32,000 bases of DNA, taken from positions 1 through 32,000 of the forward strand of contig JADHTG010000031.1 of the NCBI GenBank assembly GCA_016776505.1. Direction: 5' to 3'. Shown here piece after piece: positions 12,197 through 15,615 of the stretch; position 1 is the first letter of the stretch, and each line of letters opens with the position of its first letter. The notes under the pieces were generated by a model that was not told the DNA's origin, ran no database searches, and saw only the letters and a list, made by a program, of their open reading frames with translations. The position numbers and the translations under genes were made by a program. The DNA comes from Bacteroidota bacterium. GTDB lineage: Bacteria; Bacteroidota; Bacteroidia; CAILMK01; JAAYUY01.

Positions 12197-14215
12197 TTGA
12201 GTCTTTTAAAAAATAGGATTATTTCCACTACAAATAGAAAAGGAATGACACGAACATTCAATCCGGTTCAGAATTATGAAGAAAGCAAAAAAGCCATTGG
12301 TTATGTGGACCGTAAAGAAGCCAAACAGACGGATTATGATCGGATTGGTTTCATGTCAGGTTTGGAAGTACATCAGCAGCTTTTAACCAAGCATAAGTTA
12401 TTTTGCCGTTGTCCTGCGGGACTTTACAACCAGAGTGAGGATTATGATGCAGAAATTGTACGCCACATGCGACCCACCTTAAGCGAACTGGGAGAATACG
12501 ATGGCACAGCCCTCATGGAATTTAAAACCAGGAAAAACATCATTTACAAGATTAAAAATGAAACGGCCTGTACCTATGAAGTGGATGATACACCCCCTTT
12601 TGCTGTTGATAAAGAAGCCCTGGAAAAAGCACTGGAGATTTCCATTTTAAGTAAGTTGAACATTGTTGGGGAGGTTCATATTACGAGGAAACAATATTTG
12701 GATGGAAGTATTCCAACAGGATTCCAAAGAACGGCCATTTTGGGAGTGGAAGGAGAGATTCAGTTAAGAAATAAAAAAGTAAGATTAATTCAGTTAAGCC
12801 TGGAAGAAGATTCATGTCGTGAAATATCTGACATTGGACACTGGAGAACCTATAAAACCGACCGCCTGGGCATGCCCTTGATAGAAACAGTTACTTATCC
12901 CGATTTTGCCAATCCCGATGAGGTGAAGGAAGGTGCTGATTATATTCGTTTTCTCAACAGGAGCACAGGCAAAGTCAGAACGGGTATTGGATCTACCAGG
13001 GCGGATGTGAACGTAAGCTGCGAAGGGGGCACACGTGTTGAAATTAAGGGCGTGGCTCATACCAATTGGATGCCAGAACTGACACATAATGAGGCTTTTC
13101 GACAGTATGCTTTATTGCATATCCGGAAATTGCTGAAAGAAAAAGTGGAGGATATTAATAGCTGGAAATTAACGAAAGTGGAATTGAAAGCTGAAGACTT
13201 CAAATACAGCTATGAGCCCCTCATTCAGGCAAAGAAAAATAACTTTAAAATTGTAGCAGTCAAACTTCCCCAATTCAAAGGTTTATTGTCTCATTTCACA
13301 CAACCTTCAAAGATTTTTGCAGATGAAATATCCGACAGGCTGAAAGTGATTGCCTGTATTGAGAAACCTAATATGATACATTCCGAAAAAATTGAAAAAG
13401 TAATTACCGAATCCAATTTCAATAAAATATGCACATTATTGGGCATTTCTCAAAATGATGCATGGATTGTTTTCTGGGGACCGGAGGAAGATATTCCGAC
13501 AGCCATAGAAACCATAGATGAAAGATGCAGAATGGCATTTGCCGGAGTTCCCAATGAGACCAGGAAATCATTTGCCAACGGAACCACCATTTTTGAAAGG
13601 GTATTGCCGGGTGCTGACCGTATGTACCCGGATACAGACTCAGAGCCTATTCCATTAAAAGATGAATTCATCGATCAGATCAGGAAAAAATTACCCATGG
13701 ATATCCATGAACGAATTGATCAATTGCAATCATGGGATGTCCCTCAGGATACATACACCTACTTGTTGAAAAGAAACCTGATCCCAATCATGGAAAAGAT
13801 CCATGAAAAGCTGGGAATTAGTCATCAATTTATCGGCACTTTCTTCGGACATAAGTTAAAATTCATTGAAAACAACTTCCTGTGTCCACAGGAGTTCAGC
13901 TATGAAAGATTGTATGATCTGTTTAAATACCTGCATGATAAAAAGCTGGATTTATCGATTGCCAAAAGCATGTTAATTGAGTATTATCAACATCCAAAAA
14001 TGGATTTTGATTCTGTTCTGACCGAGATAAACTATAAGCCCATAAGCAAAGATGATTTGGCAGATAAAATTCCCTTCCTGAAGGAGAAATTCAAACAAAT
14101 CAAGATTTCTGAAAAAGAAGAAGTCGATTCTCATTGGGTGATGGGCCAGGTTTCAAAATTAGCGAGGGGAAACATTCGTTTTGCTGAACTGAAACACTTA
14201 GTCGATTCTCAATAA
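12197..14215 (+). CDS. gatE: Archaeal-type Glu-tRNA(Gln) amidotransferase subunit E
   Basis: DRIGFMSGLEVHQQLLTKHKLFCRCP, HMRPTLSELGEYDGTALMEF, YEVDDTPPF, RKQYLDGSIPTGFQRT, LGMPLIETVTYPD, a long inserted domain and GatB/YqeY-like C-terminus; length and motifs fit GatE, not GatB; followed by gatD. Confidence 0.9.
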   Translation: MSLLKNRIISTTNRKGMTRTFNPVQNYEESKKAIGYVDRKEAKQTDYDRIGFMSGLEVHQQLLTKHKLFCRCPAGLYNQSEDYDAEIVRHMRPTLSELGEYDGTALMEFKTRKNIIYKIKNETACTYEVDDTPPFAVDKEALEKALEISILSKLNIVGEVHITRKQYLDGSIPTGFQRTAILGVEGEIQLRNKKVRLIQLSLEEDSCREISDIGHWRTYKTDRLGMPLIETVTYPDFANPDEVKEGADYIRFLNRSTGKVRTGIGSTRADVNVSCEGGTRVEIKGVAHTNWMPELTHNEAFRQYALLHIRKLLKEKVEDINSWKLTKVELKAEDFKYSYEPLIQAKKNNFKIVAVKLPQFKGLLSHFTQPSKIFADEISDRLKVIACIEKPNMIHSEKIEKVITESNFNKICTLLGISQNDAWIVFWGPEEDIPTAIETIDERCRMAFAGVPNETRKSFANGTTIFERVLPGADRMYPDTDSEPIPLKDEFIDQIRKKLPMDIHERIDQLQSWDVPQDTYTYLLKRNLIPIMEKIHEKLGISHQFIGTFFGHKLKFIENNFLCPQEFSYERLYDLFKYLHDKKLDLSIAKSMLIEYYQHPKMDFDSVLTEINYKPISKDDLADKIPFLKEKFKQIKISEKEEVDSHWVMGQVSKLARGNIRFAELKHLVDSQ

Positions 14216-14229
14216 ATTAGTTGATCATA

Positions 14230-15615
14230 ATGAACGAAGATATTTTTCAAGGATATAAAGGCAAGGCACTGGCCACATTAAAAAAATATGGCGCGCGCGT
14301 ATGGGCTCAGGTTGAAGCTGAAACAAGCAGGGGGAAATTCGAAGGCACCATACTTCCCAGGGCAGAAAATACTGACGATGAACACATTGTCCTGAAAATT
14401 ATAACAGGATATAATGTGGGTTTGGATATTAATACAATCACAAACATCAGGGAAACCGGTTATAAAAAAGCGAATTATCAAATTCCTGAAAAAGCATTTC
14501 CCGTTACAAAAGGATTGCCTCATGTTAAGCTTTTTGGAACAGGAGGAACTATAGCTTCCCGTTTGGACTATAGAACAGGAGCAGTAATTCCTGCCTTTTC
14601 CCCCGGAGAACTTTATGGAGCTGTGCCTGAACTGGCTGAAATTTGCAACCTGGATACTGAAAAGGTATTTGCCGTGTTCAGCGAAAACATGGGCCCAAAA
14701 CAATATATTTCCCTGGCTCACGCCATTAAGAAGGAAATTGAAAAAGGGATTGATGGAATTGTAATTGGTCATGGTACTGATACTTTGCAGCATACCGCGG
14801 CTGCCCTATCTTATATGATCATAAATCCTCCCATACCCATTGTTTTGGTGGGCTCCCAACGGTCTTCTGATCGTCCCAGCTCTGATGCTGCATTGAATTT
14901 AATGCATGCCATGTACACCGCAGGCAATTCTGATATTGCCGAAGTAATGGTTTGCATGTTTGGTCCTACCTCTGACGAATATGCATTATTGCACAGGGGA
15001 ACTCGCGTCCGTAAAATGCATTCCAGTTATCGTTCCACTTTCAGGACTATTGGAGACATTCCTGTAGCAAGTGTTACACGCAAGGGAGTGATCCCAATGA
15101 AAAAGGAATACAATCACAGACGAAAAGAAATGGAAGTGGAAATCAAGCCCTTTTTCAGTGATAAAGTGACCATGTTGTATTATTATACCGGTATGAAACC
15201 CGATATCATGCATTCCATGATAGATCAGGGTTACAAAGGAATTGTCATTATTGGAACAGGATTGGGTCATGTAAATACAGAACTTTATCCTGCCCTGGAA
15301 AGAGCTCAAAAGGAAGGCGTTAATGTTTTTATGACTGTTCAGACTATCTGGGGCTATGTGCATATGTTTGTGTATGATACAGGCCGTGATATGATGGCCA
15401 AAGGCGTTGTTCCACTAGCCAATATGCTTCCTGAAACGGCCTATATTAAATTGGGATGGACACTGGGTCAGACCGAAAATCCTGAAAAAGTCAAGGAAAT
15501 CATGCTCACACCCATGAATTCTGATATCACAGAAAGAGAGCCATACAATGGTTATTTAGTTTACCAGGGTGGTGTGCCTGAAGTGGAAGAATTTATAAGG
15601 AAAGTGCATAAGTAA
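14230..15615 (+). CDS. gatD: Archaeal-type Glu-tRNA(Gln) amidotransferase subunit D (asparaginase-like)
   Basis: N-terminal small barrel (GARVWAQVEAETSRGKFEGTILPR), FGTGGTIASRLDYRTGAV, IGHGTDTLQHTAAAL, LVGSQRSSDRPSSDAALN; ORF track starts at 14221 (TTG), but the ATG at 14230 (MNEDIF) is the more natural start. Confidence 0.92.
   Translation: MNEDIFQGYKGKALATLKKYGARVWAQVEAETSRGKFEGTILPRAENTDDEHIVLKIITGYNVGLDINTITNIRETGYKKANYQIPEKAFPVTKGLPHVKLFGTGGTIASRLDYRTGAVIPAFSPGELYGAVPELAEICNLDTEKVFAVFSENMGPKQYISLAHAIKKEIEKGIDGIVIGHGTDTLQHTAAALSYMIINPPIPIVLVGSQRSSDRPSSDAALNLMHAMYTAGNSDIAEVMVCMFGPTSDEYALLHRGTRVRKMHSSYRSTFRTIGDIPVASVTRKGVIPMKKEYNHRRKEMEVEIKPFFSDKVTMLYYYTGMKPDIMHSMIDQGYKGIVIIGTGLGHVNTELYPALERAQKEGVNVFMTVQTIWGYVHMFVYDTGRDMMAKGVVPLANMLPETAYIKLGWTLGQTENPEKVKEIMLTPMNSDITEREPYNGYLVYQGGVPEVEEFIRKVHK

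Follow-up and report, generated by a model that had tools for sequence, protein, structure and literature searches.

A probable GatDE-type tRNA-dependent amidotransferase operon in a Bacteroidota genome, with conserved catalytic residues and diverged tRNA-recognition elements

[quoted passage not shown] Reviews from 2008 to 2022 (including PMC9499178, PMC2811023 and PMC2330236) describe GatDE as exclusive to archaea, and as an “archaeal signature protein”. This archaea-only distribution supports several arguments, namely those on the co-evolution of archaeal tRNA(Gln) with GatDE, on why archaea never acquired GlnRS and on the amidotransferases that LUCA (the last universal common ancestor) possessed. 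Here we analyse a stretch of 32,000 nucleotides of a Bacteroidota genome (positions 1 to 32,000 of contig JADHTG010000031.1, assembly GCA_016776505.1; hereafter, the window), in which an earlier reading, made from the letters alone (the sequence-only reading), had noticed a gatE-gatD pair and had pointed out, in agreement with these reviews, that GatDE is classically treated as archaea-specific. Our analysis supports a native two-gene operon, gatE-gatD, which probably encodes a bacterial heterodimeric tRNA-dependent amidotransferase GatDE.

The identity of the first subunit follows from profile, structure and fold comparisons. The product of gatE scores above the cut-offs of the NCBIfam equivalog hidden Markov models (HMMs) for GatE, by a small margin for NF003107 (473.8 bits, cut-off 456) and with 414.2 bits for TIGR00134 (cut-off 319.55), while with the models for GatB (cut-offs of 314.8 or more, and 338 for the best-scoring one) it reaches at most 124 bits. 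Its best PDB matches are 2d6f_C (M. thermautotrophicus, 4e-84) and 1zq1_C (P. abyssi, 2e-81), with GatB chains at 1e-17 or worse. An AlphaFold2 model of the protein (predicted local distance difference test, pLDDT, 90.8; predicted template-modelling score, pTM, 0.87) compares with GatE chains at template-modelling (TM) scores of 0.85 and 0.80 (target-normalised) and with GatB chains at 0.52-0.73, and it also gives weak matches to AspRS structures, consistent with an AspRS-like insertion domain. This domain, which GatB does not have, is present in the window GatE by Pfam span, by alignment and by modelled fold: the Pfam GatB_N match is stretched over residues 38-476 for a model of only 277 positions, which indicates a domain interrupted by an insertion, and the inserted region aligns with 2d6f_C and 1zq1_C without a break. 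[quoted passage not shown]

The residues known to be required for catalysis are retained. In an alignment of 81 archaeal GatE, 40 GatE from the bacterial clade described below and 4 GatB sequences, 85 columns reach a conservation of 90% or more among the archaeal GatE, and the window protein agrees with 73 of them. The Mg2+ ligands His15, Glu157 and Glu184 (M. thermautotrophicus numbering), essential residues at which mutation abolishes activity in M. thermautotrophicus (PMC2330236), are kept as His43, Glu187 and Glu214, and so are the GatB-shared R118-K119, R221/D223/N225/S227, E235/K237 and R400/R412/R419/D425. By this alignment, the catalytic pocket of GatE is unchanged relative to archaeal GatE.

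The second subunit is also well placed. GatD scores 499.8 bits against NF003217 (cut-off 310) and 496.8 against TIGR02153 (cut-off 324), both NCBIfam equivalogs, and its best PDB matches are 1zq1_A (2e-118) and 2d6f_A (6e-110), with plain asparaginases at 2e-36 or worse. Besides the N and C domains of asparaginases, it contains GatD_N (PF18195, 42.9 bits, cut-off 25.7, residues 28-74), above the Pfam cut-off and in keeping with the N-terminal barrel, absent from plain asparaginases, that the sequence-only reading had attributed to it; the alignment to 2d6f_A begins at residue 8. The catalytic columns (Thr101, Thr177, Asp178 and Lys254 in M. thermautotrophicus numbering) show no variation among the 11 sequences compared, bacterial and archaeal alike, and in the window GatD these residues sit in GTGGTIASR, GHGTDT and VRKMH. 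A Thr-Lys-Asp triad has been described for GatD (PMC2330236). All the motifs that the sequence-only reading had listed (HKLFCRCP, HMRPTLSELGEYDG and YLDGSIPTGFQRT for GatE; FGTGGTIAS, GHGTDTLQH and VGSQRSSDRPSSDA for GatD) are present in the translations.

These comparisons also bear on one of the two outcomes that the sequence-only reading had named as fatal to its own claim, namely that the pair is misannotated, GatE being a divergent GatB of GatCAB and GatD an ordinary asparaginase. GatE and GatB are indeed paralogs with a common cradle domain, and GatD holds a full type I asparaginase domain (TIGR00519, 368 bits, cut-off 260.5). Nevertheless, we give misannotation virtually no weight. For GatE, the HMM, Pfam, PDB-match and fold comparisons rule it out, with GatB scores far under the cut-offs, the insertion in place, a short loop of the GatE type and TM scores that favour GatE; for GatD, the equivalog HMMs, the presence of GatD_N and the PDB matches (2e-118 to GatD against 2e-36 to asparaginases) do the same. 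In addition, gatA and gatC were not found nearby: neither GatA nor GatC is among the annotated neighbours in the window, and tblastn searches of the window and 24 related loci for GlnRS (E. coli query), GatA and GatB (E. faecalis queries) near gatDE returned only the paralogy signal of GatE itself. The claim of a true GatD-GatE pair therefore stands.

The pair is native to a bacterial (Bacteroidota) genome, on a contig that is no chimera with archaeal DNA. The window corresponds to about positions 1648-33647 of the ENA contig NODE_6712_length_41855_cov_117.6 (41.9 kb), with gatDE in mid-contig, and the region was assembled with the same gene order in three samples of one series (at 117x, 46x and 18x coverage). 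The neighbouring genes in the window encode a type IX secretion system (T9SS) sorting-domain hydrolase, Dpp5, Lgt, an HldE-type kinase, MlaE, a tetratricopeptide-repeat (TPR) protein (which resembles YbgF only weakly, below threshold), RibH and HgcA. The G+C content is flat (about 0.38) across the window, the G+C content at third codon positions (GC3) is 0.405 for gatE and 0.372 for gatD (0.369 +/- 0.040 for the window genes), and the codon-usage distance is likewise ordinary. Neighbours, G+C content, GC3, codon usage and the three-sample assembly all speak against the archaeal contamination of which the sequence-only reading had warned. An archaeal gatDE fragment joined to, or binned with, bacterial DNA might be suspected from the literature, where GatDE is called archaea-exclusive, and from the fact that the bacterial carriers found here are all metagenome-assembled genomes (MAGs) or metagenome contigs, with no isolates among them. 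We find such an artefact hardly conceivable, since Bacteroidota genes flank the pair in the interior of the 41.9-kb contig and neither G+C content, GC3 nor codon usage shifts there, the contig was assembled independently in three samples, homologs lie within bacterial contigs of 1.3 to 6.0 Mb (beside LptD, SecA, DnaA and a Mur ligase) and the closest archaeal GatE is only 30-38% identical.

It is also clear that gatDE is not restricted to archaea, as gene content marks the window, together with dozens of related loci, as bacterial. Bacteroidota GatE clusters with 65% identity or more to the window protein number more than 120. Among the best 120 GatE matches listed, all are at least 64% identical to it and those with a name are without exception from Bacteroidota MAGs, some of them on contigs of 1.3, 1.5 and 4.09 Mb. 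At a wider scale, a search of 1.84 billion cluster representatives yielded 599 GatE-like proteins at E <1e-30, and the tier with 40-58% identity is bacterial wherever a label or a genomic context exists, with labels that include CSSED10-310, Deltaproteobacteria/Desulfobacterota, KSB1, Latescibacteria, Calditrichia, Krumholzibacteria, Aminicenantes, Ca. Desulfaltia and Clostridiales. The contexts of these relatives are likewise bacterial (a hybrid histidine kinase; LptD, MlaD and Amidase_3; a Mur ligase; a sigma-54 activator with an RND/OEP pump; SecA with an extracytoplasmic function (ECF) sigma factor; DnaA with L28 and PNPase), and in all bacterial contexts in which gatD is visible the two genes are co-directional and often overlapping. 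A scan of one genome per species gave 19 gatE loci, beside which no window neighbour other than gatD recurs. The two genes are thus linked, gatD lying directly 3' of gatE in 15 of the 19 loci and following it in every context that was looked up; an alpha2-beta2 GatD-GatE complex is predicted.

A single MAG (MFD03804.bin.2.22) has two gatE copies with 94.6% identity to each other (L011, 10001-12203; L016, 24-2000). Each sits at the end of a contig and has its frame disrupted close to the 3' end, and strain heterogeneity or assembly duplication is more likely than a real pair of paralogs.

The age and origin of the bacterial genes were approached with neighbour-joining (NJ) trees of GatE on Kimura distances, rooted with GatB (E. 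faecalis, S. meliloti, Leptospira and Fusobacterium). Bacterial GatE is monophyletic in 167/200 and 268/300 bootstraps (84-89%) and archaeal GatE in just about 13% of the replicates; midpoint rooting separates bacterial from archaeal GatE. The subclade of the window GatE has 100% support and is made up of Bacteroidota, a single contig labelled Aminicenantes and two representatives without a name. Phylum labels are interleaved within the bacterial clade as a whole: Aminicenantes-labelled GatE, for instance, occur in three places (L017; P0461, P0490, P0512), with L017 (on a 344-kb contig) as sister to the Bacteroidota subclade, and this scatter reflects either inter-phylum transfer or mislabelled bins. 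Across bacterial phyla, GatD is 60-83% identical, against 43-52% to archaeal GatD. On the archaeal side, the nearest neighbours of the bacterial clade are a Heimdall/Thor clade and two unnamed sequences, and profile searches around the archaeal/bacterial boundary return Asgard and TACK lineages; as the former placement has 18-29% support, no donor is claimed.

Taken together, these data are best explained by an old, compositionally ameliorated and monophyletic bacterial GatDE that is found in many phyla and known mostly from MAGs. This clade probably goes back to one ancient entry from an Asgard/TACK-like archaeon, followed by spread between bacterial phyla, the direction and the age of the transfer being inferred. 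The sequence-only reading had left two options for the pair, transfer of an archaeal pathway into this lineage or repurposing. Its first option does not hold in the form of a recent, lineage-specific acquisition from an archaeon by Bacteroidota, which we regard as very improbable, even though the known diversity of the family is archaeal and bacterial GatE tend to nest among archaeal ones in the GatB-rooted trees (with archaea monophyletic in 13%). Down to about 40% identity, every one of the closest relatives is bacterial, and together they make up one clade (84-89% support), archaeal GatE are at most 38% identical, composition and promoter are host-like, and gatE and gatD, co-directional and often overlapping in bacteria, are divergent in the nearest Heimdall-type loci. 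Additionally, the 599 representatives include no archaeal GatDE that exceeds about 60% identity to the Bacteroidota proteins and falls within their subclade. What stands in place of this option is an old multi-phylum clade in which the parts that recognize tRNA have diverged and the catalytic residues are kept.

The opposite extreme is a vertical relic, in which the last universal, or the last bacterial, common ancestor already had GatDE and this clade is a bacterial survivor; it is somewhat less improbable, but still improbable beside one ancient entry. GatDE in LUCA was proposed by Sheppard and Soll (as cited in PMC9499178), and both the deep monophyly of the bacterial clade and the midpoint root that splits bacteria from archaea would suit such a relic. 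Rooting with GatB, however, gives archaeal monophyly in only 13% of the bootstraps, and the patchy bacterial distribution, the branching that conflicts with phylum labels and the high identity of GatD across phyla (60-83%) suggest spread by transfer.

Some further records turned up around these searches. The loci L035 (Heimdallarchaeota) and L036 (labelled Candidatus Bathyarchaeia), in both of which gatD and gatE are adjacent and divergently transcribed, are syntenic gene for gene around the two genes, so that one of the labels is probably wrong. In Natrinema thermotolerans (L029, CP031304.1, about 2414-3830), a 987-kb “plasmid” record holds an unannotated GatE homolog whose frame ends after 474 codons and which may be a pseudogene or the product of a sequencing frameshift. 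Several PLSDB “plasmid” records with gatB (from S. meliloti, Listeria, Fusobacterium and Paenibacillus) are replicons of 2-3.7 Mb, and look like chromosomes or chromids.

If the catalytic parts of the window GatE are conserved, the parts that touch the tRNA are less so. A short basic loop in GatE replaces a 3-10 turn of bacterial GatB and is involved in the recognition of the first base pair (PMC2811023). In the window this loop reads KVRTGIGSTR, which has the length of GatE loops, two residues shorter than in the four GatB sequences, and its consensus in the bacterial clade is KVR[T/R]G[I/A]GA[A/T]R, against KVKRGLGTIR in archaea. The tail motif GXXAXGX, in turn, is a hallmark of GatE that has been implicated in the rejection of Asp-tRNA(Asn) (PMC2811023). 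The Lys-rich tail motif of GatB is also absent from the window GatE, and other members of the bacterial clade have tails such as DPEARLRYLMG.

On this background, a number of observations weigh against our overall reading of the pair, its history included. First, GXXAXGX is absent from the window GatE, where EEVDSHWVMG stands in place of the archaeal GERAFGKLMG (G[E/K]RA[F/L]G[K/P]LMG). Second, several archaea-invariant residues of the insertion domain are changed (at M. thermautotrophicus positions 321, 335, 340 and 341), Pfam GAD is undetected in the window GatE and, more generally, GAD and YqeY find nearly all archaeal GatE and few bacterial ones; with the lost tail motif and the changed insertion residues, this means that the substrate range could differ. 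Third, two Bacteroidota relatives (L006, gatE at 10001-11962; L010, gatE at 89-2050) have gatE without an adjacent gatD. Fourth, the trees are NJ on Kimura distances and not maximum likelihood, and the placement of the bacteria among archaeal GatE has the 18-29% support given above. Finally, 12 of 14 Bacteroidetes genomes had GlnRS and lacked GatCAB in a 2014 survey (PMC3927822), and since typical Bacteroidetes have GlnRS, GatDE might be redundant here.

Part of this divergence may, on the other hand, reflect a change of tRNA. One locus of the set, L010, has a tRNA-Gln(UUG) gene (3193-3264, with U1-A72) 1.1 kb downstream of gatE on the opposite strand, and it is the sole such locus; there is no tRNA gene within the window, nor are there further aminoacyl-tRNA synthetase or Gat genes on the remainder to one end of the 41.9-kb contig. 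Given this U1-A72 tRNA-Gln and the A1-U72 reading of the archaeal enzyme, the changed parts would be as expected under retuning to a bacterial tRNA(Gln). Nothing in the catalytic machinery suggests new chemistry. The most likely function is the conversion of Glu-tRNA(Gln) to Gln-tRNA(Gln) on a bacterial U1-A72 tRNA(Gln); GatDE activity, tRNA substrate and role relative to GlnRS and GatCAB are likewise inferred.

By analogy with archaeal GatDE, the mechanism would comprise five steps. A non-discriminating GluRS (ND-GluRS) would charge tRNA(Gln) with Glu; GatE would then bind Glu-tRNA(Gln) and phosphorylate its gamma-carboxyl with ATP and Mg2+; GatD would hydrolyse Gln or Asn by means of its Thr nucleophile and the Thr-Lys-Asp triad; the ammonia would pass through an intramolecular tunnel from GatD to GatE; and GatE would amidate the intermediate to Gln-tRNA(Gln). 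The gatE-gatD unit, flanked by a promoter motif and a terminator hairpin, would be native and expressed, and the diverged tail motif, the first-base-pair loop and the insertion domain would represent the adaptation to the U1-A72 tRNA(Gln) of bacteria. As to physiology, either the lineage is without GlnRS and relies on ND-GluRS and GatDE, or GatDE is a second route.

Repurposing, the other option of the sequence-only reading, would keep the chemistry and change or widen the substrates, for instance by taking on Asp-tRNA(Asn) as well (in replacement of GatCAB) or by serving a role outside translation. The clade-specific substitutions in the first-base-pair loop and the insertion domain would fit such a change, and a pure Glu-tRNA(Gln) amidotransferase would be redundant with the GlnRS of typical Bacteroidetes. 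We nevertheless judge a repurposed or broadened enzyme unlikely, although it is the strongest of the alternatives weighed here: the AspRS-like insertion is kept in the fold, and modelling suggests that it clashes sterically with a non-discriminating AspRS (PMC2330236), the catalytic pocket shows no change, L010 carries a U1-A72 tRNA(Gln) gene near gatE, and the changes in the motifs are equally explained by adaptation to bacterial tRNA(Gln). Returning to the synthesis of Gln-tRNA(Gln), a bolder form of it, which we put forward only tentatively, is that GatDE is the essential and sole route to Gln-tRNA(Gln) in this lineage and many others among bacteria (which would have neither GlnRS nor GatCAB), retuned from A1-U72 to U1-A72 by way of the altered tail, loop and insertion domain, and then an ancient cross-domain enzyme and not an archaeal signature, obtained by very early transfer from Asgard/TACK archaea or by pre-LUCA inheritance.

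At the level of the genes, the open reading frame (ORF) list of the window has two plus-strand ORFs head to tail, 12197-14215 (gatE) and 14221-15615 (gatD), in accordance with the arrangement and the 5-14 bp gap of the sequence-only reading. The true starts are likely the ATG codons at 12245 and 14230, which leaves a 14-bp intergenic gap: homologs start there (those of GatD with MSEDFFQGYKG or similar), the promoter motif TAGGTTTG overlaps the upstream TTG, and a database protein 100% identical to the window GatE (P0001) has 656 residues. The promoter scan used the motif TAnnTTTG, as a sigma-70 scan is uninformative for Bacteroidota. It occurs 44 times in the window against 38.9 expected (no overall excess), with 13 of the 44 matches within 60 nt 5' of ORF starts, where 1.3 would be expected (binomial P 2e-10); examples are at 2660, 5989, 12070 (minus strand), 12192, 15726, 19690, 24188 and 30929. 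In view of this enrichment, the motif behaves here as an element of promoters would, whereas the copy upstream of gatE, taken as a single site, is not significant. The hairpin downstream of gatD is likely the terminator of a gatE-gatD bicistronic unit (Table 1).

Table 1. Features of the gatE-gatD unit in the window; functions of the two genes are predicted
Feature	Coordinates	Strand	Description
gatE	12245..14215	+	656 aa; mechanical ORF from TTG 12197; predicted kinase/amidotransferase and tRNA-binding subunit
gatD	14230..15615	+	461 aa; mechanical ORF from TTG 14221; predicted glutaminase (type I asparaginase-like) subunit with N-terminal GatD_N
-7 promoter motif TAGGTTTG (TAnnTTTG, Bacteroidota-type)	12192..12199	+	ends 46 nt 5' of the gatE ATG
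Hairpin of 14-15 bp, G+C-rich	15621..15651	+	begins 6 nt past the gatD stop; terminator-like on both strands; 9 G-C pairs

The window has other features of its own. A mercury-methylation cluster occupies 7300-9075 on the minus strand, with an ArsR-type helix-turn-helix gene (8749-9075), hgcA (7603-8730; NF040863, 403.6 bits, cut-off 275) and an hgcB-like ferredoxin gene with two [4Fe-4S] motifs (7300-7596). A radical S-adenosylmethionine (radical-SAM) gene (11135-12037, minus strand) is divergent from gatE and resembles QueE and activases, far under every cut-off; it was considered as part of the gatDE system and rejected, as it accompanies gatDE in no related locus. Downstream of gatD, the ORFs of the TPR protein (15754-16458) and of ribH (16319-16984), both called mechanically, overlap by 140 nt; the lumazine-synthase match begins at residue 65-72 of the latter, which places the true ribH start probably near 16505. 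There is no Pfam or NCBIfam match for three consecutive plus-strand ORFs at 20248-22137 (180, 235 and 213 aa), nor for a 188-aa ORF at 638-1204, whose product is absent from the gene-position index.

What is new here is a distinct bacterial clade of GatDE with altered tRNA-recognition elements, the enzyme family and its chemistry being known. Full-text literature searches found no report of bacterial GatDE; such a report could still have been published, and NCBI and JGI annotations already name bacterial proteins GatE and GatD. A large monophyletic bacterial clade weakens the claim that GatDE is exclusive to archaea, and it means that gatD and gatE are unusable as archaeal markers in the binning of metagenomes or in contamination screens. 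The clade also offers a natural experiment in the retargeting of an amidotransferase, from A1-U72 to U1-A72 tRNA(Gln), and makes several questions testable, namely in which bacteria GatDE has taken the place of GatCAB or GlnRS, whether it forms a transamidosome with a bacterial ND-GluRS, and which archaeon was the donor and when.

In comparison with the known systems, the pair is closest to archaeal GatDE (2D6F, M. thermautotrophicus, with tRNA(Gln); 1ZQ1, P. abyssi), with which it has in common the two subunits, the catalytic residues, the short loop and the architecture (GatD_N and asparaginase in GatD; in GatE the cradle, the AspRS-like insertion, the helical domain and a putative tail domain). 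It differs from archaeal GatDE in its bacterial host, in sequence (30-38% identity for GatE, 43-49% for GatD), in a GatE without the tail GXXAXGX, with a substituted loop and a diverged insertion domain, and in the likely tRNA(Gln), which would be U1-A72 for the bacterial and A1-U72 for the archaeal enzyme; from the Heimdall-type loci, where the genes are divergent, it differs also in the bacterial order, gatE then gatD, co-directional. Bacterial GatCAB likewise combines a tRNA-dependent kinase/amidotransferase (GatB, the paralog of GatE) with a glutaminase through an ammonia tunnel. Its glutaminase, however, is an amidase (GatA with GatC) and not an asparaginase homolog, and GatB lacks the AspRS-like insertion, has a 3-10 turn instead of the short loop and carries a Lys-rich tail. 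The type I L-asparaginases (of Pyrococcus, and AnsA of E. coli), finally, share the core fold and the Thr/Thr-Asp-Lys residues with GatD, whereas GatD has GatD_N, adjoins gatE (with which it is probably co-transcribed) and matches GatD structures about 80 orders of magnitude better.

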